From an uncultured delta proteobacterium (GTDB lineage: Bacteria > Desulfobacterota > Syntrophorhabdia > Syntrophorhabdales > WCHB1-27), in the NCBI GenBank assembly GCA_963816715.1, contig CAWFMJ010000027.1, positions 43,173 to 75,172 on the forward strand: a DNA stretch of 32,000 nucleotides. The letters run 5' to 3'. Under the pieces are notes generated by a model, which worked only from the letters and a program-made list of their open reading frames with translations, was not told the DNA's origin and made no database searches. Of this stretch, positions 3,791 to 29,710 are shown in pieces. The position numbers were made by a program, and so were the translations under genes. How positions within the stretch are numbered: the first letter of the stretch is position 1; the number at the start of each line of letters is the position of its first letter.

Positions 3791-4180
3791 CTTAGCCCCT
3801 CTCTCCCTCGATCTTGTTTACTTTAGCCGCCAATGACGTCCGTCGTCAATCTGTTTGTTGCGGCGCGCCGTCTTTCCGCCCGCTGATTCACTCTATTTCA
3901 TGAAAATACCAAAGGGAAGAAAAAAATGCAAAGATCCGCGCATGCTCGGGCAGGCCCACAGAATGTGCTCCCCTAGCCCGCTAAGAAGACCTTCAGAAGA
4001 AAACAAAGAACGAGAATTCTGTTGACCTTCACCGGGGCAGGGTGTCAGAATAGGTTGAGCATCCAGTAAGAGAAACCCTGCTAAACATGACAAAAACGAA
4101 GGAAGACCCATAAATGTTGATCTTAAATAGCCGGGGCGAAGAGCCTACAACTTCGCTCTATGGCAATTGGAGGAGACGAG

Positions 4181-6874
4181 ATGGATCGCAAGCCTATCGA
4201 TTTGAAGGATGGAAAACGCACCCTGAAGTCCGCCAGCCTCATGGGGCCTTTGAGCGGGCCGCCCGTTGCCGTCTATTCGGACGGCAAAAAGATCACCCGC
4301 ATACGGCCCTATCATTACGACGAGGACGGTCGCAACCTGGAGGCGCTGAACCCGTGGAAGATCGAGGCGCGGGGAAAGACGTTCTCTGCCCCCACGCACA
4401 CGGTGCCCTCGCCGTTCTTTCTTGCCTACAAAGGGCGCGTCTACTCGAAGAACCGGGTATCCTACCCCCTCAAAAGGGTCGACTGGGACCCTAAAGGCGA
4501 GAGAAATCCGCAGAACCGCGGCAAGAGCGGCTATGTCCGCATCTCCTGGGACGAAGCGGCCCAGCTCATCGCTGACGAGTTGCTTCGGGTCAAAGAGCAA
4601 TACGGCATGTCTGCGGTCCTCTCCGAAGCCGACATGCACGGCGAAGGCAAGCATATTGCGCCTTCCCACGGCGCAGCCAACCGTCTTTTCTCCCTTCTCG
4701 GCGGCTACACCATACAGATGCGCAACATGGACAGTTGGGAAGGCTATTCCTGGGGTTCCAAAAACGTCTGGGGCGGCGAGCCGGTCGGCGAAATGCAGCC
4801 CTCGGGCAACCTCTATCCCGATATTGCCAAGAACTCCGAGCTGTTGCTCTTCTGGGGCTGCGACCCCGAGACGACGCCCCTCGGGGTGGACGGCATGATG
4901 GCAAGCCGCCTGTGCTACTGGCTCACTGAGCTGGGAATCAAATGCGTCTACGTGGACCCCGCCCTCAACTACGGCGCCGCCGTCCACGGGGACAAGTGGA
5001 TACCGGTGAAGCCCAATACCGATGCCGCCCTCTACCTTGCCATCGCGTACACGTGGCTCAGCGAAGGGACGTACGACAAGGAGTACGTCAAAACGCACGT
5101 CGTCGGCGCAGAGCCCTTCTTCGACTACGTGCTCGGCAAAGAAGACGGCGTGCCCAAAACGCCGGCGTGGGCTACCGAAAAATGCGGCGTTCCCGAATGG
5201 ACCATCAAAGCCCTGGCCAGGGACTGGGCCAACAAGGTCACGAGCATCTGCATCGGCAACGGCGGACCCGGCCTGCGAGGTCCCTACGGCACGGAGCCGG
5301 CCCGTCTCCAGTCTATCCTGTTGGGCATGCAGGGCCTGGGCAAACCGGGCAGGCACCAAGCCAAGATGCTCGAATGGAACTGTCATTCCGCCATATTCCC
5401 TCTGCCTTACCAAGGCAAGGGCGTCCCCATTTTCCCGAACAGGGGCGAGATCGTGCGCCCGCCGAAGGCATACCAGCGCTGCGGCTTCGAGGTCATGGCA
5501 GATGCGATGGCGATACCGGAAATCGCCAAACTGCTCGAATGGAAGGAGCCGCCGGCGCAGTCGATACCCAAGTGCCGCATTCACGACGCCATCCTCAACG
5601 ATTCCATCACCTGGTGGGGCCTTCGCTCGTTCTGCGGCCCCGCTCACGAGCAGTGGGTGGAGCATAAGTTCCCCGACGACGGCTGCTCGCGCATCCACAT
5701 GGTCTGGTCCGACTCTCCCTGCATGACCACCTGTTGGAACGACGGCTTCCGCTTCGTCGAAGCCATGCAGAGCCCCGATATCGAATGCTTCGTGGTGCAA
5801 CACCCGTGGCTGGAGAACGACTGCTACCTGGCCGACATCATCCTGCCCGTCGCAACGAAGCATGAGCTGAGCGACATCTCGGACGACACGAACGGCGGCA
5901 TTTTCACCTCGGTCTACCGGGAGACTCCTGCCTGCCCGCCCGTTGGAGAGTCGGTTTCCGACTATGAAGCAGTGGCGAGGGTCTGCAAGAAGATCGGCGA
6001 AAAGCTCGGCGATGAGATCTACCAGCAATTCACCGGCAACGACATGTCCGACGAGAAGTGCATTGATCTGTTCTGGCAGGGCTGCGGCGTGACGCACCTC
6101 GACACGGAGAAGCACTTCGAAAAGGAAGGCATTTTCGTCATCCCCTGCGACCCCGACATCCAGAAGCACCCGCCCGGATTGAGCGAATTCGCCAACGATC
6201 CGGAGAAACATCCCCTCTCCACGCCGACGGGGAAACTCGAATTCACGGCCACGGGCATTCTGGAGCATTTCCCGAACGATCCCGAGCGCCCGCCCTATCC
6301 CAAGTGGGTAGAGCAGGGCGAATCGCACGACGAGCGGGTGAGCGGCGACCGGGCCGGCAAGTATCCGCTGCTTTGCATGTCAAACCACGGCAGATGGCGC
6401 ATGCACGCACAGTGCGACGATATCGTCTGGAACCGCGAACTTGGCGCCATGAAAGTCCGCGGCAAAGACGGCTATCAGTACGAGCCAATCTGGATGCACG
6501 CATCCACGGCTGCCGAGCGCGGCATCAAACACGGCGACATCGTCAAGATCTTCAACGACCGGGGTACTGTCCTCGGCGGCGCCTACGTCACCGAGCGGGT
6601 CATTCCCGGCGTCGCTTACATGGACCACGGCTCGCGCTTCGACCCCATCGATACCAAGGCCATCGACCGGGGCGGCGCCATCAACCTGATCACCCCTCAT
6701 TCGAACACCTCGAAGCACGTCACCGGCATGGCCGTTTCGGGCTTCCTGGTGGAGGTGCAGAAGGTAACGGACGAAGAGATGGACGGCTGGAAGAAGCAAT
6801 ACCCCGAGGCCTTCGCGCGCAAGATAGACAAAGCCTGCGGCGTCTGTCTCGACGGCTGGCTCATCAACAACTAG
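4181..6874 (+). CDS. Molybdopterin oxidoreductase (DMSO reductase superfamily), pyrogallol-phloroglucinol transhydroxylase large-subunit-like
   Basis: Start revised from 4160 to the ATG at 4181, preceded by GGAGGAGA. Motifs WKIEARGKTF, SWEGYSWGSKNVWG, WGCDPETTPLG, DVILP-type NDCYLADIILPVATKHE and C-terminal NDRGTVLGGAYVTERVIPG match the transhydroxylase large subunit as recalled. No N-terminal Cys cluster for a 4Fe-4S centre. Confidence 0.85.
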   Translation: MDRKPIDLKDGKRTLKSASLMGPLSGPPVAVYSDGKKITRIRPYHYDEDGRNLEALNPWKIEARGKTFSAPTHTVPSPFFLAYKGRVYSKNRVSYPLKRVDWDPKGERNPQNRGKSGYVRISWDEAAQLIADELLRVKEQYGMSAVLSEADMHGEGKHIAPSHGAANRLFSLLGGYTIQMRNMDSWEGYSWGSKNVWGGEPVGEMQPSGNLYPDIAKNSELLLFWGCDPETTPLGVDGMMASRLCYWLTELGIKCVYVDPALNYGAAVHGDKWIPVKPNTDAALYLAIAYTWLSEGTYDKEYVKTHVVGAEPFFDYVLGKEDGVPKTPAWATEKCGVPEWTIKALARDWANKVTSICIGNGGPGLRGPYGTEPARLQSILLGMQGLGKPGRHQAKMLEWNCHSAIFPLPYQGKGVPIFPNRGEIVRPPKAYQRCGFEVMADAMAIPEIAKLLEWKEPPAQSIPKCRIHDAILNDSITWWGLRSFCGPAHEQWVEHKFPDDGCSRIHMVWSDSPCMTTCWNDGFRFVEAMQSPDIECFVVQHPWLENDCYLADIILPVATKHELSDISDDTNGGIFTSVYRETPACPPVGESVSDYEAVARVCKKIGEKLGDEIYQQFTGNDMSDEKCIDLFWQGCGVTHLDTEKHFEKEGIFVIPCDPDIQKHPPGLSEFANDPEKHPLSTPTGKLEFTATGILEHFPNDPERPPYPKWVEQGESHDERVSGDRAGKYPLLCMSNHGRWRMHAQCDDIVWNRELGAMKVRGKDGYQYEPIWMHASTAAERGIKHGDIVKIFNDRGTVLGGAYVTERVIPGVAYMDHGSRFDPIDTKAIDRGGAINLITPHSNTSKHVTGMAVSGFLVEVQKVTDEEMDGWKKQYPEAFARKIDKACGVCLDGWLINN

Positions 6875-19490: not shown

Positions 19491-19860
19491 GATGTACCCC
19501 CTGTCGCGTTAGCTCACTCGGCGCTGAGAACGCGACACTCATAATTCTATCATTCCACGACCGGCTCGACAACAACAAGCGACTGCCGGAAAAGCCCTTC
19601 GGATAATTATCCCCATACCAGATGGTTCTCGTAAAAGGAAATGCTCACGGGAAAGAACGATATGTGGCATAAAAGACAATAATTCGTTTCGTATCTCGAA
19701 GGTGCTGCCGGAACATGGCCCGGAAATTGACTTCCCGGCCCTCCGGTAGCGGTACGATAGTTGCATGGAAGCAGTCGGATGGATTAAGCCTCGTTCGCAA
19801 AAAGAGGCTGGAAAACGAGCAAACAATACTGCGCGTACTCAAGAACAGGGAGGACAAAAC

Positions 19861-21429
19861 ATGGGAATAGGAACTTATCAGGCGTACAAAGAGCGGCTAT
19901 TGAAGATGAAGCCGAACGTGTATATCAACGGCAAGAAGGTCGACCGATCGGGCGACTGGATCGACGGCGGCTGCTATGTGATGAAGCAAACCTACGATTA
20001 TGCCAATGATCCCGAATACCAGGATGTCTGTACGGCCGTATCTCATCTGACCGGCGAGAAGATCAACCGTTTCACCCACGTTCACCGGTCGAAGGAAGAC
20101 CTGCTCAACAAGCAGATGATGACGAGGCTGCTCTGTCATCGCGTCGGCGGCTGCACCCAGCGTTGCATGGGCACGGACGCAATCAATGCCCTCGACGTTG
20201 TCACCTATGACATAGACCAGGCGTGCGGCACCAAATACCACGAACGTTTCGAAAAGTATCTCCTGTATTCTCAAAAATATGACCTTGTCGCAAACTGCGC
20301 ACAGACAGACGTCAAAGGGTCCCGCAACCCCAAGTACAAGAGAGCCCATATGCAGCCCGATCCGGACCAGTTTGTCCACATAGTGAAGACAAACGTCGAC
20401 GGCATCGGCCTCGATGGAAAACCATGCAAGGGCATCATCGTCCGCGGCGCGAAGATCTGCAACTCCAACGCCCCCTATGTCGATGAAATAATCGTTAACC
20501 CGACCAAGCTCATGGGCAGAGGCGACGAGGGCTACGCCGTATCCTTTGCGTTGCCGGCCGACTGGGACGGCTTGAAGCTGATGGCCCTTCCGGGGAAACA
20601 TCACAAGAGGACGCACATCACGGCCCCCTTTTCCAATGTCGGCGACGTGGAATCCCTGACTATCTTCGACGATGTATTCGTGCCCGAGGAAAGGGTCTTC
20701 ATGAATGGTTACGATCATCCCGACGTGGTTCAGTACGCAGGCTATCTTGCCCTCATGTTTGCCCATTTTCACCGTCATTCCTATACCGGCTGCAAGACCG
20801 CCGTCTCCGAGGTTATCGCGGCCCAGGCAGCCCTCGTTGCCGACGTGAACGACATCGCGCAGGAACACCACGTCCGTGAAAAACTCTGCGAGATCATCAG
20901 CACCGCGGAACTGGTGTTCGCTGCCGGGCAGGCCTCAGCTTTTCGTGCGGTGGAGTTTCCCAATGGTTCATGGGTGCCGGACGAGGTGCTCACTAACGCG
21001 GGACGAAGGCTTGCCGGCCACAAGATCTACGAGGAATATGCAACACTGGCAGACCTGACGGGCGGCATTTGCGCGTCGCTTCCCACGGAAGAAAGCTACT
21101 ACGCTCCGGAAACGGCCGAGCTGTGCAACAAGTACATCATACGAAACCCCGCATATACCGCCGAAGAGACCCACAGAGTCATGCGCATGATGGAAAACAA
21201 GCTCTGCGATCCTTTTGAGGGCGCTCAGGCGGTCGCAGGCATGCACGGCGGCGGCTCTCCCCTCATGGAGACCATCACCATGATGAGCCGGTATGACCTC
21301 GAGCCGCTGAAGAACATCGCGAAGTTCCTCGCCGGTTTCAAGGATGCGAAGCTCCCCCGGTACGAACGTCCCACCGCGACGCCGAGGGCTATGCTCGACA
21401 AGTTTAAGAAGCTGGAAAAGAAGGACTAA
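19861..21429 (+). CDS. 4-hydroxybutyryl-CoA dehydratase / vinylacetyl-CoA isomerase-like protein (AbfD/HpaB superfamily)
   Basis: Motifs CTQRCMGTDAINAL, GTKYHERFEKYL, DVKGSR, FHRHSYTGCKTAVSEV and FEGAQAVAGMHGGGSP. The Cys-x3-Cys and His-x6-Cys spacings match the 4Fe-4S ligands of AbfD. Start revised from 19765 to the ATG at 19861, preceded by GGGAGG. Confidence 0.88.
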   Translation: MGIGTYQAYKERLLKMKPNVYINGKKVDRSGDWIDGGCYVMKQTYDYANDPEYQDVCTAVSHLTGEKINRFTHVHRSKEDLLNKQMMTRLLCHRVGGCTQRCMGTDAINALDVVTYDIDQACGTKYHERFEKYLLYSQKYDLVANCAQTDVKGSRNPKYKRAHMQPDPDQFVHIVKTNVDGIGLDGKPCKGIIVRGAKICNSNAPYVDEIIVNPTKLMGRGDEGYAVSFALPADWDGLKLMALPGKHHKRTHITAPFSNVGDVESLTIFDDVFVPEERVFMNGYDHPDVVQYAGYLALMFAHFHRHSYTGCKTAVSEVIAAQAALVADVNDIAQEHHVREKLCEIISTAELVFAAGQASAFRAVEFPNGSWVPDEVLTNAGRRLAGHKIYEEYATLADLTGGICASLPTEESYYAPETAELCNKYIIRNPAYTAEETHRVMRMMENKLCDPFEGAQAVAGMHGGGSPLMETITMMSRYDLEPLKNIAKFLAGFKDAKLPRYERPTATPRAMLDKFKKLEKKD

Positions 21430-21476
21430 CCGCTTCATAGACCCTTCGGCCTTCGGAAAATTCAAAATCTTGGTCC

Positions 21477-21516
21477 AAATCGGACCCATCGGGTAAACTC
21501 CGAATGGGTCCGATTT
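21477..21516 (+). terminator. Strong hairpin downstream of the AbfD-like gene, probable terminator
   Basis: AAATCGGACCCAT (21477-21489) pairs with ATGGGTCCGATTT (21504-21516), 13 bp, with an additional inner CGG/CCG. It starts 47 nt after the stop codon at 21429. Confidence 0.7.
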
Positions 21517-21587
21517 ACGTTGTCCGGTGACGCCATTGAGGATTCTTCTTTGATGCTTCACTAGAGTCCAACACGCACAAAGGGAGC

Positions 21588-22157
21588 CTAGAGTCGTGGT
21601 TTGCAGATGATTTCTCTGATTTTTGTGTTGAAGAATGTATGCGTATTGGCGGCTGTCAAGACCAAGGCGGCGTCCGCTCCTCCCGCAGAGCCTGCGATCG
21701 CGACGACGTCCTCATTTGTTCTGATTAAACCTGCATCCGCGGCCATACAGGTGATTTCACAGGAGACTTTCACGCCTTGTCCGAATAGTCTGAGGACATG
21801 GGCGATAATCTCGTCAACCTGAATTGTGTTGAATCTGTTGTTTACGGCCCTGCCCAGACCGCCGAAGGAGTGGGCCGCGTGGAGTATCCTGCCGCCGTTC
21901 CGCTCGATCGCAGTGCGGTTTTCAGCCAGAAGCATGGTTGTGTTCGGTTCCTTGAATCCGACCACCCCAGCCACTACGATCAGGTTGACGCCTTTGAACA
22001 TTTCTGAGGCTTTAGCCCCGGTAAGACCGCTGTAGGAGGCTACGATGATATTCTTGACGCCCAGTTGTTCGGCTCTCTCCTTCGCGAGTTTAAGGGTCGC
22101 GTCGGTGTTCCTGCTTCCGGGATGCTCGAAATAAGTGGTTTTACACGCTACATCCAT
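21588..22157 (-). CDS. Stand-alone pyruvate kinase C-terminal (alpha/beta) domain-like protein
   Basis: TLKLAKERAEQLGVKNIIVASYSGLTGAKASEMFKGVNLIVVAGVVGFKEP...NRTAIERNGGRILHAAHSFGGLGRAVNNRF resembles PK_C-like stand-alone proteins. No pyruvate kinase catalytic barrel is present. Confidence 0.8.
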   Translation of the reverse strand: MDVACKTTYFEHPGSRNTDATLKLAKERAEQLGVKNIIVASYSGLTGAKASEMFKGVNLIVVAGVVGFKEPNTTMLLAENRTAIERNGGRILHAAHSFGGLGRAVNNRFNTIQVDEIIAHVLRLFGQGVKVSCEITCMAADAGLIRTNEDVVAIAGSAGGADAALVLTAANTHTFFNTKIREIICKPRL

Positions 22158-22291
22158 GTGTTGATCCTTCTGATGTTCTGTATGGCCTCCATCGACTTCT
22201 GTGTGCTTCCCGCGACGTAGAGGCGCGGCACGCAGCGCTGCCGGCCGCTGAGTTTCGCCGCCTTCTCGAACTCTTTGCCGCTTTCTTTCAT
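22148..22291 (-). pseudogene. Truncated kaiB remnant (kaiB4, 47 aa), absent from the supplied ORF track
   Basis: Manual translation: [47 protein letters not shown]. The segment RLYVAGSTQKSMEAIQNIRRI aligns to the N-terminus of the neighbouring KaiBs. Its ATG overlaps the kaiB3 stop (ATGA) and its 3' end overlaps the start of the 21588..22157 ORF. Confidence 0.8.
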
Positions 22292-22617
22292 GCCGTCCCC
22301 TTGCCCTTCACGCGCAGGTCGAGTCCCACCAGGACGCGCTCCGTGTTCGACAGATCGCCGATGATCTTGCGCACCGGCTCGGGGAGCTTCCTCACGAGGG
22401 TGGGAATGGCGAGGATCTGGTCGCCCTTGGCGAGGGTGGGGTTTTCTAAAAGGTCGATCACCTCGATGCGATACTTCCCTTTCAGGTGCTCCTCGCAGAG
22501 CTTCTTCAGGTTAGAAAAGGCAACGAGGGACTTCGGCGTTTGACCGGCGACGTAGAGGCGAAGCTCCCAGAACTCTTCGCCTGAGGCTGCTTTCCTGATC
22601 ACGCGCTCCTCCTTCAT
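22288..22617 (-). CDS. kaiB: KaiB-domain protein (kaiB3)
   Basis: [84 protein letters not shown], classical KaiB pattern. Confidence 0.94.
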
Positions 22618-24317
22618 GTCGTCCCGTCAGCCTGCCGGCGGCGAGCCATCTCCTTGCGCTGCTCGTTGAGCGCTGATCGGCGGCGCTCCACCTGCTGGGC
22701 GAGTTTGCGCATCTCTTCCTCGTCCGCCTCGATGCCTGCCCGTATCGCGGCGATCTGCGCTTCCGCCAAAAGCCGCTTCCGCTCCAGCTCCCGCTTCCTG
22801 CGGTCCGTTTCTTCTTTCAGGTCCTCCTCTGCCATGCGCTCTTTCGCCTCCTGGGCGGCGCGGGCAGAACCGGTAAGCACGCCTGAAGGGCCGAGGTAGA
22901 CGTCCTGGAGCTCGATGCCAGAATCGGTGAGGAGGAACTCGCGTATCTGGTTGGAGTGCGCAATGCCGCGGGCTTTCAGGATCATGAGGCCCCGGTTGCG
23001 CTCGCCGCTCGACTCCAGGTCGCGCAGCACCATCCACGCGTCCATGAGCGAGGAGATGCCCACCTCTGTTCGTTCGAGACTTTCGCCTCCGGCAGTGAGG
23101 CTCGTGAACAGGGCGGTTATGCGCTCCGCTTTTAAGTAATCGATGAGACGAGTGAGCATCGATTTCACTTCCTGCTCGTTGCCGACGCTGATCAGGTTGG
23201 TGATGGGATCGAGGATGACGACGCTCGGCTTGAAGGCCTCGACGGTCCGGTGAATGTGGGCGAGGTGCGTCTCGAGCCCGAAGACCGTCGGGCGGGAGGC
23301 TTCAAAAAGAAGAAGGCCTTTGTCGATGCAGGGCTGGAGGTCGATGCCGATCGACCGCATGTTGCGGACGATCTGGCTTTGGGATTCCTCGAAGGCGAAG
23401 TAGACGGTCTTCTCTTTGCGCTCGCAGGCCGATTTCGCGAAGGCGGCGGCGACGCTCGATTTGCCCGTGCCCGCCGTGCCGGACAGGAGGATGGTGCTTC
23501 CCCGGTAGTGCCCCGCGCCTGCGAACATTGCATCGAGCCGGGGGATGCCGGTGGAGATGCGTTCTTTCGAGGCCGTGTGTTTCAGGCCGAGCGAGGTGAT
23601 AGGCAGCACGCTGATGCCGCGTTCCCCGATGAGGAAAGGGTACTCGTTGGCGCCGTGGGAGGAGCCGCGGTATTTCATGACGCGCAGGCGCCGGGTCGAG
23701 AGCTGCTCGGCGACGCGGTGGTCGAGGATGATCACGCAGTCGGCGACGTACTCTTCGAGACCGTGGCGGGTTACCTTATCGACGCCCCGCTCGCCGGTGA
23801 TGACGGCAGTGACCCCTTTCTGCTTCAGCCAGCGGAAGAGGCGCCGCAGCTCGGCCCGCAGGATCGCCTCGTTGGGGAGGCTGGCGAAGAGCACTTCGAT
23901 GGTGTCGAGGACGACGCGCTTTGCCTTGATCGAATCGATGGCGTGGCCGAGCCTGACGAAGAGGCCTTCCAGGTCGTATTCGCCCGTCTCCTCAATCTCG
24001 CTCCGCTCGATGTAGACGTAGTCGATGGAAATCTTCTTCTCTTTGGTCAGCTTCGCCAGATCGAACCCTAAGGACTTGACGTTCTTGGTCAAGTCTTCGG
24101 CGGTCTCCTCGAAGGCCATGAAGACGCCCGGCTCATTGAAGGCTTCGGCGCCGTGGACGAGGAACTCCATCGCCAAAAGCGTCTTGCCCGCGCCCGGTCC
24201 GCCGGCCACGAGGGTGGGGCGGCCTTTCGGCAGACCGCCGCCGGTGATCTCGTCAAGGCCTTTGACGCCTGTGGGCGCCTTCGGCAGCGCGCCGGGGTCT
24301 GAGAGCTTCCTTGCCAT
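22614..24317 (-). CDS. kaiC: KaiC-family double ATPase (kaiC2) with C-terminal charged coiled-coil-like extension
   Basis: Two P-loops ([15 protein letters not shown] and [19 protein letters not shown]), tandem catalytic Glu motifs (MAFEETAED and FAFEESQSQ) and R-rich C-terminal tail. AAGGAGG precedes the ATG. Confidence 0.95.
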
Positions 24318-24519
24318 GCCTCAACTCCTCCTTGCCGCGGCGATGTCGACCGGAAAGAAATGGCGCGCTTGCCTGTTTCTGCGGACCGGTCTCGAAGGTT
24401 CGTTCACCTCGTCCTTCCCGGAAAAGCAATTAAGCATGAAGATGGATGCAATAACCGACACTCATTATTCTACGACTGTTGATTTTGGCTGTAAAGCGAT
24501 AAAAGCTGCGCGCGCGTCT

Positions 24520-24936
24520 TCAGACGCCCTCTCGGGCGTCCTTCAGCGCTCCGGCCTGGGGCTTCGGCTGCAGATCGAGCCCTATGAGGATGGTCTCGAT
24601 ATCGGTCATACCGCCGATGAACCGGCGCAAAGGCGGCGGCAGCTTCTTTATCAGCGTAGGCACGGCAACGATTTGTTCCCCCCTGGCGAGGACCGGCTGC
24701 TGATAAATGTCGATCACCTGCAGTTTGTAGCGTCCCTTCAGGTGCTCCTCGCAGATGCGCTTTATGTTGGTGATCGCCTGGTTCGATTTCGCCGACGTCC
24801 CCGCAATGTACAGCTTGAGCACATAGTTTTGCTCCTTGACCCCCTTGGCGGCCCGTTCGGACAGCTCTGGCCCGTTCCCCGGTCCTTCCGTCGCGGACTT
24901 CGGATCAACGCTGTCTTTTCGGCTTCGCTTTGTCAT
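24520..24936 (-). CDS. kaiB: KaiB-domain protein (kaiB2)
   Basis: [85 protein letters not shown]. Overlaps the 3' end of kaiB1 by about 32 nt (exact start uncertain). Confidence 0.93.
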
Positions 24937-25261
24937 TCGTCACTTCCAGGGTTAATGGCCGGGGTTTCAGATCGAGACCCACGAGCACGCGCTCCGTGTT
25001 CGACAGGTCTCCTATGACCTTTCTTATGGGGGTCGGCAACTTTCGTACAAGGGTCGGGATGGCGACGATCTGATCGCCCTTCGCCAGAAGCGGCTTTGCC
25101 AGGAGATCGACTACCTCGATGCGGTATCGACCGGCAAGGTTTTCCTCGCAGATCCTCTTGAGGTTCTCGAGTGCGGTCCACGATTTCGGCATCGATCCCG
25201 TCACGTAAAGGCGAAGCTCATAGATCGGGGCCGGCTGTTCCTCTTTTTTTGCGGCCCTCAT
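24905..25261 (-). CDS. kaiB: KaiB-domain protein (kaiB1)
   Basis: [89 protein letters not shown] overlap with the kaiC1 stop. Confidence 0.94.
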
Positions 25262-26973
25262 GCTTCTGCCTTCGCATCCGCCTGACGGCGGCGCGCCATC
25301 CCCTCCTGTTGCTCCTGGATCGCTCTCGCGCGGTTCTCATCCTGCCGGGCTATCCTCCTCATCTCCTCAACGTCGGCCTCGATGTTTGCCCGTATCGCTG
25401 CTATCTGCGATTCGGCCACGGCCCGTTTCCGCTCTAAATCCCGCCGCTTGCAATCGAGATCATCCTTCGACGCCGCCTCGGCCGCCCTCTCTTTCGCCTC
25501 TTGCTGTGACCGGGCCGAGCCTGTCAGGACCCCTGACGGGCCGAGGTAGACATCCTGGAGCGCAATGCCCTGGTCGGTGAGGATGAACTCCCTGATCTGA
25601 TTCGAGTGGGCCATGCCGCGAGACTTCAGGATCCACAAACCCCGGTTTCGTTCGCCGCTTGACTCGATGTCGCGGAGGACCATCCAGGTATCCATGAGCG
25701 AGGAGATGCCCGCCTCCGTCTGCTCGAGGCTGTCGCCTCCCCGTGTGAGGCTCGTGAAGAGCGTCGTGATGTGCTCGGTCTTCAGGTAATCGATGAGGCG
25801 CGTCAGCATCGACTTCACCTCGTGCTCGCTGCCTACGGTGATGAAATTGGTGATCGGATCGATGAGGACGACGCTCGGTTTGAAGTCTTCGATGGCCCGG
25901 TGTATGCTGGTAAGGTGCGTCTCGAGACCGAACGCCGTTGGGCGGGACGCGTCGAAGCGCAGCAGGCCTTTCCCGACGGAAGGCTTGAGATCGACGCCGA
26001 TCGATTCCATGTTGCGGACGATCTGGCTCTGAGACTCCTCGAAGGCGAAGTAAAGCGTTTTTTCTCCCCGGTCGCACGCCGATTTGGCAAAGGTCGCCGC
26101 CACGCTCGATTTTCCCGTACCTGCCGTCCCCGAAAGGAGTATGGTGCTTCCCCGGTAAAACCCGTCGCCTGCAAACATCGCATCGAGGCGGGGGATGCCC
26201 GTCGATATTCGTTCACGTGAGGCCACGTGCTTCAGACCGAGGGAGGTAACGGGCAGGACGCTGATGCCCTTGTCGCCGATAAGGAAGGGATACTCGTTCG
26301 TGCCGTGGGACGACCCCCGGTACTTGACGATCCGGAGCCGCCTCGTGGAAAGTTGCTCGGTGACGCGATGGTCGAGGACGATCACGCAGTCGGCGACGTA
26401 TTCCTCCAGACCCTGGCGGGTCAGCGTCTCCGTCCCCCGCTCGCCGGTAATGACCGTTGTGACCCCCTTATCCTTGAGCCAGCGAAAGAGGCGCCGCAAT
26501 TCGGCCCTCAGGATCGCTTCGTTGCGCAAACTCGAGAAGAGTACCTCTATCGTGTCGAGGGCCACCCGCTTTGCCTTGATGGAATCGATGGCGTGACCGA
26601 GCCTCACGAAAAGTCCGTCGAGGTTGTATTCCCCCGTCTCCTCGATCTCGCTCCGCTCGATGTAGACGTAATCGACCGACATTTTTTTTTCGCGGCCGAG
26701 CTTCTCAAGATCGAAGCCGAGGGACCTGACGTTCCTGGTCAGCTCCTCTGCCGTCTCTTCGAAGGCTATGAAAACGCCCGGCTCGTTGTAGTCCTGCGCG
26801 CCGTGAACGATAAATTCCATAGCCATAAGAGTCTTGCCCGAGCCCGCTCCGCCGGCGACGAGCGTAGGCCGGCCCTTCGGCAACCCCCCGTTCGTGATCT
26901 CGTCGAGACCCCTGACGCCCGTCAATGCTTTCTCAAGAGCTCTTGAATCGCTTGACGCCTGTCGTGCCGCCAT
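25258..26973 (-). CDS. kaiC: KaiC-family double ATPase (kaiC1) with C-terminal charged coiled-coil-like extension
   Basis: P-loops [15 protein letters not shown] and [19 protein letters not shown], with EE catalytic motifs. Start revised from 27003 to the ATG at 26973, preceded by AGGAGG (AAAGGAGGTTGCGCAATG). Confidence 0.95.
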
Positions 26974-27120
26974 TGCGCAACCTCCTTTTTGCAAACCGCG
27001 CAAGATGGTTTAGAGCTCAATGCTTTCGCGGCCCCATAGCCGCACACCGCCGCAACGCCGGGACGGTTTCATCCACGAACAGAGAATTCCTGAGAGGTCT
27101 ATCCCGATCGGTTTGGCCGG

Positions 27121-27152
27121 CCCGCCGCCATGATACGCCGCAAAGCGGCGGG
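27121..27152. repeat. GC-rich inverted repeat with two mutually exclusive pairings, upstream of kaiC1
   Basis: CCCGCCGC (27121-27128)/GCGGCGGG (27145-27152), or the alternative CGCCGC (27136-27141)/GCGGCG (27145-27150). Confidence 0.6.
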
Positions 27153-27162
27153 AGAAGCATTT

Positions 27163-27205
27163 TGGCGTGCGAAATCCATACTCTTGACATGGATTTCGCA
27201 CGCCA
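27163..27205. repeat. 17-bp perfect inverted repeat (9-nt loop) between the PocR-LuxR gene and kaiC1
   Basis: TGGCGTGCGAAATCCAT (27163-27179), ACTCTTGAC, ATGGATTTCGCACGCCA (27189-27205). Confidence 0.85.
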
Positions 27206-27292
27206 TGGCTTCCTACTAGATCATCCTCGTAATCACCATTGTACAGCCTCAATAGAGACGAGTCAATAGGATAATAAGGACAAACAGGATTT

Positions 27293-28252
27293 TCAGGTTA
27301 TGGATATGAGGTGGCTGCGCAGATTTGTCTTGTGGTCAAGGACCAATTTCTTTCGGATGTTGTAACGGTGATACTCTACCGCTCTCAGGGATACGCCCAA
27401 AAGCTCTGCAATCTCGGCGGTAGCCCGGCCCTCCTTCAACAGCAAGGCCACCGCGAGCTCCCTTGCCGTAAGGCCAAGGGTCTGCATCTTTCGCATGACG
27501 GGGGACATTATATCCTTCAGACCGGACTCGAGCATGTCGACGGCGCTCGCCTGCTCGCGAGACAGCCGGCTCTTCTTCAACTTCTCCAGATAGGGAAGGA
27601 CGCGTTCTTTCATATTGGCGGTGATATCTTCCTCGAGCTGGCTTCTTTCATTTTCCTTTTTTCCCGGGGCTGCTCGCGGCGGCGTACCGACCTTCTCCGG
27701 AAAGCGGGAGCCGATGGCCCGTCCCTTCTGAGGCGTCGCATCGGCGAGCCCTTGCACGACCGTGCCGCCCAGGTCGGCAAGAAGCGAGAAACATTGGAGA
27801 AATGCGCGGACTTTTGATTCATCCACTACGGCGGCCTTCGATAGCGCTTCGGCAAGGGCCGACTCGCTGAGGCCGAATCGCCCCTCCTTGTGTTTGAATG
27901 AACCCATATCGGGAGGATCCGTGAAAAACGGGCCGGCCACCAGGGCGCCGACGCGCTCCCCGAGGACGGCAACGGGCGCCGACGCACAGGCCAGGCCGTG
28001 CCCGCATTTTTCAATCGAGTACTTTGGGCGGGCTTTCTTCTTGAGGGCAACGCCCCCATCGCCTCGTTCGCACTTTTGCACCGCCTGCCGGTCCGGCCCG
28101 CAAAGGCGACGAATATCCGGCCCATCCGATTTCGCGAGGATCGAGCCCTCGGGGTCAACAATGGAAAGCGGAATGCCGGTCGCCTTATAGAAAGTGTTCG
28201 CGAACGTCTTTAGCCTGGCGGCGTCGACGAGGTGGGAAAGCTTGTGTTCCAT
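27293..28252 (-). CDS. PocR-like sensory domain protein with LuxR-type HTH output
   Basis: N-terminal FANTFYKATGIPLSIVDPEGSIL...KCGHGLACASAPVAVLGERVGALVAGPFF (PocR-like, Cys-rich); C-terminal LTARELAVALLLKEGRATAEIAELLGVSLRAVEYHRYNIRKKL (LuxR HTH). Confidence 0.9.
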   Translation of the reverse strand: MEHKLSHLVDAARLKTFANTFYKATGIPLSIVDPEGSILAKSDGPDIRRLCGPDRQAVQKCERGDGGVALKKKARPKYSIEKCGHGLACASAPVAVLGERVGALVAGPFFTDPPDMGSFKHKEGRFGLSESALAEALSKAAVVDESKVRAFLQCFSLLADLGGTVVQGLADATPQKGRAIGSRFPEKVGTPPRAAPGKKENERSQLEEDITANMKERVLPYLEKLKKSRLSREQASAVDMLESGLKDIMSPVMRKMQTLGLTARELAVALLLKEGRATAEIAELLGVSLRAVEYHRYNIRKKLVLDHKTNLRSHLISIT

Positions 28253-28354
28253 AGCAAAGGGTTCTCTGCCTCTTCCCTATAAGATTATCCTCATTGCGAG
28301 GCATTTTCCTTCTATAAATATACACTCATACTACTATGCTTTTACACGTATGTT

Positions 28355-29347
28355 TTATCGTATGGACGACAGGTGGGATCGCAGATTCATCTTCTTCCGG
28401 TTCAGTCCGAGTTTCTTTCTGATCTTGTATCGGTGGGTCTCGACCGCCCGTGGGGAAACGCCCAGCAATTCCGCGATCTGCTTCGTGGTTTTGCCGGCTT
28501 TCAAATAGGCCACGACTTCGATCTCCTTGGGAGTGAGATCGAAAGCTTGTATTCGCCTGATGATAGGCGACGTTATCTCCTTCAGGTTAGCCTCGATGAT
28601 CTCGACGCTGCTGGCCTGGGCAGTATCCAGCCGGCTCTTTTTCAACCTCTCCACGTAGGGGAGGATCAGCTCCTTCACGTTTGAAAGGATATTCTCTTCA
28701 AGCTCGCTCTTGTCCGCCTCCCTCTGCTTCAGCAGGACGCGGAGCGCCGTATTGGTCTCTTCGAGGGTCCGCGACTTTATATCGAGGGTTTCCTCTGCCC
28801 ATTTTCTCGCTGAAATGTCGGTCGCCACGATGCAACTGTTGCGCGCGTCGTGAAGCTCGCACCCGCCCGCAAGGTGGATATAAAGTTCTTTGCCGGACGC
28901 CGTCTTGAGAGGGATCTCCTGCAAGGATTTCTCTACGTGGCTTCGGTTTATAAACGCGGTAAAGGTGTCCCGACAGCCGGCGGGCACGAGGTCCAGGAAC
29001 GAGGAGCCGACGAGCTGTTCCATGGGAACGCCGATCATCTCTGAAAAAAAAGCGTTGCAGTACAAGATGATATACTCGCCGTTCAGGGTCACCGCGCCGG
29101 AGGCCATCGTCTCGACGATGCTGCGGTAAGGAAAATCAGGGCCCTCCAGGGTGTATACCTGAGGCCTTTCGCCCTCGATGACCAGTGCATCGACATCGCC
29201 GTTCCGGATCGCTCCGATGGTCTGCTCCGCCTCTTCGAGCCGCGCCCGTAACTCCTTATTCTGCTCCAGAAGACGTTCCAGGCCGACATCGCTGCTCGTC
29301 GTGGTCTCCTTATTCACCGCGCACCCCCCGCCGTCCTTGGCATGCAT
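28355..29347 (-). CDS. PAS-domain protein with LuxR-type HTH output
   Basis: PAS-like VETMASGAVTLNGEYIILYCNAFFSEMIGVPMEQLVGSSFLDLVPAG; HTH LTPKEIEVVAYLKAGKTTKQIAELLGVSPRAVETHRYKIRKKLGL. Confidence 0.9.
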   Translation of the reverse strand: MHAKDGGGCAVNKETTTSSDVGLERLLEQNKELRARLEEAEQTIGAIRNGDVDALVIEGERPQVYTLEGPDFPYRSIVETMASGAVTLNGEYIILYCNAFFSEMIGVPMEQLVGSSFLDLVPAGCRDTFTAFINRSHVEKSLQEIPLKTASGKELYIHLAGGCELHDARNSCIVATDISARKWAEETLDIKSRTLEETNTALRVLLKQREADKSELEENILSNVKELILPYVERLKKSRLDTAQASSVEIIEANLKEITSPIIRRIQAFDLTPKEIEVVAYLKAGKTTKQIAELLGVSPRAVETHRYKIRKKLGLNRKKMNLRSHLSSIR

Positions 29348-29710
29348 CTAAGCCAGATTATAGCATCATCTTTACCGGAACCGCCATGAAACCCCTAGGC
29401 CGGTGGGCGAAAACCGGGCCATTTCACTGCCCCTTGGAAAACGCGGCATTCACGCAGTCCGGTCACGGCGAAGGCGCCTTGATTCGTCCCCGCTGACGTT
29501 GGGCGCCGCTGCCCGCCGTGAAGGCCCTGCAATGGGCTTATCGGGATCGTCCCCTCGTGTTCCTTAAATGCGACCGCATTGACTATGATCTTGCCTTTCT
29601 TGCGCGGTCGGGCAGGGTTTGCTTCAATCACCCTGCCCTTTTTTGGACCCTGAGAACCTGTCGAGGCGTAAGTTTCGGTAATCATAGGGTAAACAGAGTC
29701 ATACTAATCA

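Follow-up and report, generated by a model that had tools for sequence, protein, structure and literature searches.

Organization of the kai locus

The window analyzed here is a stretch of 32,000 nucleotides (nt) from an uncultured delta proteobacterium (assembly GCA_963816715.1, contig CAWFMJ010000027.1, positions 43,173 to 75,172 of the forward strand). Its positions 21588-27003 hold a kai locus of seven genes or gene remnants on the minus strand, in which two kaiC-kaiB-kaiB units, the second of them with a truncated last kaiB, follow each other head to tail. KaiBC systems outside the cyanobacteria serve as models for a simple hourglass timer preceding the circadian clock; to our knowledge, the studied examples (Rhodobacter sphaeroides, Rhodopseudomonas palustris, Legionella and the KaiB2C2 pair of Synechocystis) each have one KaiB.

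Unit 1 opens with kaiC1 (25258-26973, minus strand as are all genes of the locus), whose ORF (open reading frame) extends from an upstream TTG at 27003 and whose probable start is the ATG at 26973; the 571-amino-acid (aa) product from this ATG is identical to database protein P0012 and carries two Pfam KaiC domains (E = 1.4e-113). It is followed by B1 (24905-25261; 118 aa; Pfam KaiB E = 9.5e-26), a kaiB of the kind called type 1 below, and by B2 (24520-24936; 138 aa; E = 1.1e-25), a type 2 kaiB with a 38-aa N-terminal extension. Unit 2 consists of kaiC2 (22614-24317; 567 aa; two KaiC domains, E = 1.1e-111; identical to P0001), the type 1 kaiB gene B3 (22288-22617; 109 aa; E = 4.2e-28) and B4 (22148-22291), a truncated type 2 kaiB of 47 codons that has no Pfam match and matches custom KaiB profiles. 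The last gene of the locus (21588-22157; 189 aa) encodes a protein resembling the pyruvate kinase C-terminal domain (Pfam PK_C, E = 3.7e-9). ATGA start/stop overlaps join C1/B1, C2/B3 and B3/B4, and the B2 ORF begins 32 nt ahead of the B1 stop codon (24905-24936). B1, B2 and B3 each cover positions 1-81 of the 82-position Pfam KaiB profile (PF07689; E = 1e-25 to 4e-28). Amino-acid identity is 79% for C1/C2, 67% for B1/B3, 55% for B1/B2, 50% for B2/B3, and 51% over 35 aa for B2/B4. A Pfam scan that took in 27 larger ORFs of the window (10 at E <= 0.01 and 17 at E <= 1e-4) gave no match to KaiA. An earlier note, made from the letters of the sequence, had described this gene order from C1 to the PK_C-like ORF, the 4-nt ATGA overlaps at C1/B1 and C2/B3, the lack of a visible kaiA, and three intact, non-identical KaiBs; each of these was borne out, with a further ATGA overlap at B3/B4 and with full-length KaiB domains of 50-67% mutual identity.

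KaiC type and predicted KaiA independence

Pfam PF06745 covers two stretches in both KaiC1 and KaiC2, corresponding to tandem CI and CII domains. Walker A motifs and Glu-Glu pairs were identified in both domains of both proteins by sequence reading and by alignment to the R. sphaeroides KaiC structure 8DBA, and both proteins show FEES. This R. sphaeroides protein (KaiC-RS) is the best solved relative of both KaiCs; against KaiC2 it scores 634 bits over residues 11-544, as compared with ~334 bits for Synechococcus elongatus KaiC. The phosphosite of KaiC-RS is a pair of adjacent serines, S413/S414 (PMC10076222), and GISSLMD in both C1 and C2 aligns with GLSSLMD of 8DBA at this site. The C-terminal tail of KaiC-RS is a coiled coil that joins two hexamers and permits autophosphorylation without KaiA (PMC10076222); the HMMER alignment of C2 with 8DBA runs through this tail (query residue 544, chain residue 537), and the kaiC1 product, as read from its sequence, ends in a charged C-terminal tail of ~70 aa. 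Judged by these sequence features, KaiC1 and KaiC2 both belong to the KaiA-independent KaiC2 type of R. sphaeroides, and the missing KaiA thus needs no special explanation. KaiA has been reported from cyanobacteria only (PMC5520375).

Two KaiB types in a standard cassette

A scan of one genome per species yielded 548 confirmed relatives of KaiC2, of which the best 80, 61-68% identical to it, were analyzed with their loci. The hosts include Methanoperedens, Bathyarchaeota, Methanosarcinaceae, Acidobacteriota, Bacteroidota, Planctomycetota, Chloroflexota, several proteobacterial classes, Desulfobacterota, Verrucomicrobiota and others. Among the 79 informative loci, kaiC is directly followed by two kaiB genes in 61, by one in 16 and by three in two. 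In a neighbor-joining tree of 161 KaiB domains, a single clade takes in 66 of the 68 second-position proteins and 3 of the 87 first-position ones (Fisher p = 2e-37). We have named the first- and second-position kinds T1 (type 1) and T2 (type 2), respectively. The hallmark of T2 is an N-terminal extension with an F-E-x-A motif located 14 to 11 residues before the first strand; T2 proteins also have I at position 16, L at 33 and Y at 39, the latter within IDIYQQP, where T1 proteins have F, I and L, with IDLLxNP. In its commonest form among the window and the 80 related loci, the KaiC2 cassette therefore holds two distinct KaiBs in fixed order, which are occasionally fused.

Profile scores place B1 (158.7 bits for T1, 131.8 bits for T2) and B3 (176.5 bits for T1, 134.8 bits for T2) with T1, and B2 (151.7 bits for T2, 129.9 bits for T1), which also lies in the T2 clade, with T2; by sequence, then, B1 and B3 are T1 proteins and B2 is a T2 protein. 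The KaiB of R. sphaeroides (KaiB-RS) leans to T1 (132.7 vs 121.2 bits) and is the best solved match for both B1 and B2, with 105 bits between B1 and KaiB-RS structure 8FWJ. The resemblance of B1 to B3 and of B2 to B4 pointed out in the earlier note is upheld by the profiles, which assign the first pair to T1 and the second to T2. It reflects an ancient split and not a local duplication, because T1 followed by T2 is the fixed order of the cassette and any two cassettes would pair in this way. The same survey, in which the kaiC-kaiB-kaiB order recurs in Bacteria and Archaea, overturns the suggestion of an unusual stoichiometry for a single unit, one KaiC with two KaiBs being the norm. What is unusual at this locus is the presence of two units in tandem, the lack of an adjacent histidine kinase, and the kept stub of B4.

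The T2 protein is strongly constrained in sequence. The 120 best database matches of B2 include 109 single-domain proteins, all of them T2. When B2 is compared with its counterpart in L085, an independent contig from another sample with ~93% DNA identity to the window, the KaiB domain shows no amino-acid change, and all 8 differences fall in the first ~33 residues and the C-terminal tail; because of this distribution, the true start codon of B2 is uncertain. In a few cases the two types are joined in one polypeptide. Database protein P0126 (239 aa) is an in-frame T1-T2 fusion encoded between kaiC and a PAS kinase gene on three independently assembled contigs, and P0125 is a second likely T1-T2 fusion. 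Such fusion in the order of the genes suggests that both proteins act together on one complex. P0126 is found at L090 1822-2541 and L091 1711-2430, where the neighboring KaiC is only 494 aa long and may lack the long tail. Other database proteins of 190-240 aa that look like a double KaiB mostly have a garbled middle and seem to be frameshift artefacts; P0125 and P0126 alone have the appearance of true fusions.

The G and D of the GLD motif, residues of which have a role in KaiB fold switching (PMC5520375), are kept in B1, B2 and B3. An AlphaFold model of B3 (mean predicted local distance difference test score, pLDDT, of 68.7) has template modeling (TM) scores of 0.75-0.76 to ground-state KaiB (0.76 to 2QKE) and ~0.4 to fold-switched KaiB; the ground-state fold of this model is consistent with a fold-switching KaiB.

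PAS partner and proposed output

The gene that follows the last kaiB in the related loci encodes proteins with varied outputs (hybrid kinase, GGDEF-EAL, PAS alone) that share an N-terminal PAS module of ~170 residues, so that the KaiC2 cassette brings along a partner with a conserved PAS module and interchangeable outputs. In Bacteroidota loci (L013 4773-5498, L026 8402-9100 and similar ones), the gene after the two kaiBs encodes ~235 aa, consisting of the PAS module without a recognizable output domain. In the window, neither unit is followed by a PAS-module gene, and no remnant of the module was found in the gaps. Two genes for LuxR-type regulators lie upstream of kaiC1 on the same strand: one with Pfam PocR (E = 2.2e-25) and GerE domains (27293-28252), and beyond it one with Pfam PAS and GerE domains (28355-29347). 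Residues ~24-192 of the PAS-GerE protein match the N terminus of the product of the gene after the last kaiB in 78 of the 80 loci (full-sequence E down to 2e-41; best domain at most ~118 bits), and score 95-137 bits against the kai-adjacent kinases of the related loci L081-L088. The window thus has the usual partner of the cassette, only upstream, since the PAS module forms the N terminus of PAS-GerE ahead of unit 1. Orthologues of the PAS-GerE/PocR-GerE pair adjoin kaiC in L089, L084 and L081, and the C-terminal half of PocR-GerE is paralogous to that of PAS-GerE (130 bits). Because the PAS module here belongs to a DNA-binding protein of the LuxR type whose neighbor is a PocR-LuxR paralogue, the output would probably be direct transcriptional control instead of a histidine kinase.

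A kinase gene is present at some distance. Positions 2-2551 on the plus strand, cut by the window edge, encode a hybrid histidine kinase with Pfam PocR, PAS, HisKA, HATPase_c and Response_reg domains, a member of the kinase family found with kai cassettes in other loci. Its identity to the L082 kinase, whose gene immediately precedes kaiC, is 58% over 530 aa, and its identity to the cassette kinases of L081, L084 and L003 is 46-49%. From this similarity it may be a displaced partner of unit 2, although the functional link is inferred. No kinase remnants were detected in the B2-kaiC2 gap, in the kaiC1 leader or downstream of the PK_C-like gene. The PocR domain is common to this kinase and to the LuxR-type regulator beside kaiC1.

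The truncated kaiB and the PK_C-like gene

B4 retains the N-terminal motif, strand beta-1 and part of helix alpha-1 of a KaiB. Since it has no Pfam match and covers ~40 of the ~104 KaiB-profile positions, it is treated here as a remnant and not as a member of the family. Its type can nevertheless be assigned: B4 scores 30.1 bits with the T2 profile and 23.5 bits with the T1 profile, and among fragments of equal length this difference of +6.6 falls within the T2 range only (T2 minimum +3.4, T1 maximum +1.4). The F-E-x-A motif is in register, I16 and I19 are T2 states, and the 16 best pairwise matches of B4 are all T2 proteins, 13 of which, from other genomes, outrank B2. The homology stops after ...NIRRI; the four codons that follow, with the stop codon, overlap the PK_C-like gene at its start, and the Shine-Dalgarno-like GAAGGA of that gene sits within the B4 codons AGA-AGG-ATC.

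The same arrangement, junction, 47-codon stub and PK_C-like gene are found in L085, so the truncation of B4 is no assembly artefact. Among the 81 sources searched, a PK_C-like gene is linked to kai genes in the window only, with L085 as the further case. The 11 differences between the PK_C-like genes of the window and L085 are all synonymous; the two B4 stubs differ in 7 codons, 4 of them synonymously and 3 non-synonymously, and the first 37 codons encode the same amino acids in both. The earlier note had seen in B4 the decay of the last kaiB. The truncation is real and shared with L085; a freely decaying product was considered and is argued against by the conservation of the stub, with 7 differing codons being too few to settle the matter. 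Going by this pattern the retained stub could serve as a short leader ORF, though the numbers are too small for a firm statement. A deletion would have removed the 3' two-thirds of the unit 2 T2 gene together with whatever followed it, joining the stub to the PK_C-like gene. The L085 assembly is noisy, with 49 gap openings in 6.7 kb and its unrelated HpaB gene also broken. At L085 1255-1373, ~118 nt within the B2-kaiC2 gap do not align to the window (near ~24504), representing either an insertion or divergent sequence in this noisy assembly.

Age and origin of the two units

DNA similarity between the two units amounts to 76% and is limited to 26922-24968 vs 24272-22315, that is, to kaiC and most of the first kaiB. 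For the C1/C2 pair, synonymous divergence (dS) is ~1.0 and the ratio of nonsynonymous to synonymous divergence (dN/dS) is 0.14, while the synonymous sites of B1/B3 are saturated. In trees built by neighbor joining on simple distances, ~36 database KaiCs, including C1 and C2, form a clade with 100% bootstrap support; the few named members of this clade or their near relatives are labelled Syntrophorhabdaceae or Syntrophorhabdales. C1 and C2 fall in a star-like subclade of it, all members of which are 77-82% identical to each other, with 79% between C1 and C2. The KaiCs P0002-P0005 are nearer to both C1 and C2 than C1 is to C2, and sisterhood of C1 and C2 receives 19-50% bootstrap. The first KaiBs of the two units differ more clearly in their affiliation. 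B1 belongs to a T1 subclade with 96% bootstrap, together with the T1 proteins of L082, L086, L087 and L089 and one T1 of L084, and B3 lies outside it. Identity of B3 to each of 117 database T1 proteins lies between 77 and 93% (median 87%), as compared with 67% to B1, and B3 is a mainstream, slowly evolving T1; B1 is a divergent T1, with a median of 71% identity to the same 117 proteins.

Relatives of the locus show several states of a similar arrangement. The gene order in L089 is PAS-GerE, PocR-GerE, kaiC, T1, T2, a second T2 and an 83-aa remnant of the PAS module; in L084 it is PAS-GerE, PocR, a frameshifted kaiC, T1, T2, a transposase, T1 and T2; and in L081 the pair of LuxR genes is accompanied by a transposase and by two tandem cassettes in which the kinases are retained. 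As tandem or clustered cassettes mark the whole lineage, with different losses in each genome, an old two-unit locus fits better than a fresh duplication or insertion. We therefore read the locus as two old paralogous copies, head to tail, of a widespread, KaiA-independent KaiC2-type cassette (kaiC-T1-T2), and put the probability of this reading at roughly two in three. Each unit has its own promoter-like site: TTGACT-17-TACAAT upstream of kaiC1 (27238-27266, minus strand; 10 of 12 consensus matches, a match to the consensus only) and TTTACA-17-TAGAAT in the 202-nt gap between B2 and kaiC2 (24467-24495, minus strand; likewise 10/12). Beyond the window, the same genome probably encodes a third KaiC, P0015, which shares 78% identity with C2 and lies in the other subclade, closest to unit 2 of L081. 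The region L084 9881-21719 is dense and rearranged, and also holds a kaiC whose only kaiB is a T2, an orphan group of T1, T2 and kinase genes on the opposite strand, and a kaiC split or fused with the next kaiB.

Several points weigh against this reading. The trees are of the neighbor-joining kind on simple distances and the KaiC subclade of C1 and C2 is star-like; in one reduced tree these two even come out as a pair (45% bootstrap). Over KaiC residues ~241-320, C1 and C2 resemble each other more (89%) than they resemble other KaiCs (<=84%), which could reflect gene conversion or a more recent common origin. The exact T2 bipartition is weakly bootstrapped (21/200), so that the T1/T2 split rests on the agreement of gene position with clade, and some single-KaiB cassettes are intermediate between T1 and T2. 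The AlphaFold model of B2 (pLDDT 50.8) is too poor to give any structural support to a distinct role of T2. The PAS-LuxR link to the kai genes is drawn from homology and from adjacency in four loci, and all function is transferred from a KaiC that is ~55-60% identical (counted from the 8DBA alignment).

Unit 2 could alternatively have been acquired separately, by horizontal transfer or by a move from another kai locus, leaving its kinase behind and having its T2 gene clipped by the insertion or by a later deletion. The cassette is mobile, with KaiCs of 61-68% identity spread over Methanoperedens, Bathyarchaeota, Acidobacteriota, Bacteroidota, Planctomycetota and others; the L083 cassette adjoins the conjugation genes TraG, TraH and TraF, and the kai genes of L081, L084 and L089 have transposase or integrase genes at their flanks. 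The nearest relatives of C2 (L082, L086) have a kinase gene upstream of kaiC, and in the window the 58%-identical kinase described above lies ~20 kb off; the separation of B3 from B1 in the T1 tree would also be accounted for. However, both KaiCs are members of one fully supported family-level clade, L084 and L089 too have a partial second unit right after the LuxR-linked one, and in the window the flanks of unit 2 are free of mobile-element genes and of repeats. A separate acquisition is on balance unlikely, and unit 2 may nonetheless have moved in from another kai locus. In L083 (1-7018 and 9447-9743) the cassette is found beside the conjugative-transfer genes TrbC, TraF, TraH and TraG, with an extra, divergent orphan kaiB just ahead of kaiC, which hints at travel on mobile elements.

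The earlier note had proposed a tandem duplication of an ancestral kaiC-kaiB-kaiB unit, with decay of the last kaiB. The homology of the two cassettes stands, as does the agreement by type of B1 with B3 and of B2 with B4. A recent duplication in place within this lineage is quite unlikely. It is favored by the common order, strand and direct adjacency of the units, by the 76% DNA identity of kaiC and the first kaiB, and by the weak pairing and the similar residues ~241-320 of C1 and C2 noted above. Against it stand the dS of ~1 for C1/C2 and the saturation of B1/B3, the closer relatives of C1 and C2 found elsewhere (P0002-P0005), and the placement of B1 and B3 in different parts of the T1 tree (96%), B1 being more distant from B3 than any of the 117 database T1 proteins; C1 and C2 share one clade without supported sisterhood. 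Moreover, B2 is not the nearest T2 of B4, relatives hold remnants of a second unit at the same place, and the leaders and flanks of the two units share no sequence: the two upstream regions have no common 9-mer and no common 13-mer at <=2 mismatches, and the B2-kaiC2 gap shows no similarity to the kaiC1 leader.

That the whole of unit 2 is a dying, functionless pseudo-cassette with the B4 truncation as its first visible lesion is very improbable, for although B4 is truncated, unit 2 lacks a PAS partner of its own and the kaiC2 region of the noisy L085 assembly is split into several partial ORFs, kaiC2 of the window is intact with all catalytic and phosphosite motifs, the C1/C2 dN/dS is low, B3 is among the best-conserved T1 proteins, and the stub has its first 37 codons without amino-acid change beside 4 synonymous changes.

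Proposed cycle and comparison with known systems

In R. sphaeroides, fold-switched KaiB binds the CI domain of KaiC-RS and accelerates ATP hydrolysis, the outcome being an hourglass timer responsive to ATP/ADP (PMC10076222). By analogy, each unit of the window is inferred to run the same basic cycle, with T1 as the counterpart of KaiB-RS. KaiC hexamers would pair into dodecamers via the C-terminal coiled coil, as in the R. sphaeroides system; the tail would keep the A-loop region open, and KaiC would phosphorylate its Ser-Ser site without KaiA. T1 would then switch fold and bind the CI ring, resulting in faster ATP hydrolysis and in dephosphorylation. Each unit would behave as an hourglass-like timer or would sense the ATP/ADP ratio, and would not be a free-running clock. 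T2 would act on the same KaiC particle as T1 and, as a hypothesis, may form the bridge between KaiC and the partner with the conserved PAS module at its N terminus. A bolder form of this proposal, which we regard as doubtful, is that T2 is no spare copy but an obligate second subunit of a KaiC2/T1/T2/PAS-protein module spread over Bacteria and Archaea, that T2 couples the state of the KaiC ring to the PAS partner by its conserved N-terminal F-E-x-A extension, and that this anaerobic lineage has expanded the module to three or more KaiCs and exchanged its kinase output for direct, LuxR-type control of transcription. If true, one cell would hold several coupled non-photic timers or energy-state sensors.

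The closest known system is the KaiBC hourglass timer of R. sphaeroides (8DBA, 8FWI, 8FWJ; PMC10076222), which is like the window in its KaiC tail, its Ser-Ser pair and the absence of KaiA. It has one KaiB, whereas the cassettes of the window encode two anciently diverged KaiBs each (with the T2 of unit 2 truncated). The window further differs in having two tandem cassettes, with a probable third KaiC on the contig, and a PAS partner with a LuxR DNA-binding domain in place of a kinase, and its organism is probably a non-phototrophic anaerobe resembling the Syntrophorhabdales. A kaiC-kaiB-PAS/histidine-kinase operon is known from R. palustris and R. sphaeroides (PMC4794148), and De Luca et al. 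(2011) surveyed contexts of kaiC with kinases or GGDEF/EAL proteins (PMC3164672). The logic of kaiC, kaiB and a PAS signaling protein is the same in all of these, with the kinase or GGDEF/EAL protein encoded downstream. These systems also share with the window a KaiC C terminus ~50 aa longer than in cyanobacteria; they are described with one kaiB, while in the window the PAS protein is encoded upstream, has a GerE output, and no kinase is adjacent.

The name kaiCBB appears in passing in the genome report of Thiodictyon syntrophicum Cad16T (PMC5944118); the kaiC-kaiB-kaiB order there is the same, and we found in that report no analysis of two KaiB types, no duplication and no functional data. 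Schmelling et al. (2017) described a KaiB2/KaiC2 subgroup with a Ser-Ser site, the members of which co-occur and are also present in Archaea and Bacteroidetes (PMC5520375). The defining features of this subgroup, which includes the proteins of Synechocystis sp. PCC 6803, are shared by the window, but the survey does not split two KaiB2-like types or report a fixed order. The cyanobacterial KaiABC system has homologous KaiC and KaiB proteins, the ground-state fold of the latter being adopted by the B3 model (TM 0.76 to 2QKE); the window differs from it in the lack of KaiA, in a Ser-Ser instead of a Ser/Thr site, in the predicted coiled-coil tail, and in the score of only ~334 bits of its KaiC2 against KaiC of S. 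elongatus. A search of the open-access literature found no analysis of two KaiB types per cassette, of their fusion, or of the shared PAS module. New at this locus are the tandem arrangement of old KaiC2-type cassettes, the LuxR-type partners in place of a kinase, and the retention of a T2 stub that overlaps the start of an unrelated gene.

The lead that reaches beyond the window, and the more interesting one, is the conserved yet unexplained second KaiB; if it has a role of its own, the present models of a "primordial" timer are incomplete. The window itself offers a natural experiment, in that adjacent cassettes, one of them without most of its T2, occur with an output apparently shifted to a DNA-binding protein, in a host that has no obvious need to track daylight.

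Gene surroundings and the kaiC1 leader

Positions 4160-6874 of the window encode a molybdoenzyme with a pyrogallol-hydroxytransferase-like first domain, and positions 19765-21429 encode a protein of the HpaB/4-hydroxybutyryl-CoA-dehydratase family. Together with the PocR-PAS hybrid kinase, these neighbors of the kai locus point to an anaerobe that degrades aromatic compounds.

An Rfam scan of 21400-29600 found no family, its one match being a chance, sub-threshold hit on a hairpin in the kaiC1 leader. This element, at 27164-27204 on the minus strand and downstream of the promoter-like site, is a perfect 16-bp inverted repeat with a 9-nt loop (GGCGTGCGAAATCCAT...ATGGATTTCGCACGCC). As RNA it would fold with -31 kcal/mol, and it is absent upstream of kaiC in seven related loci. 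The repeat may serve as an operator to which the LuxR-type regulators bind, or form a hairpin in the RNA.

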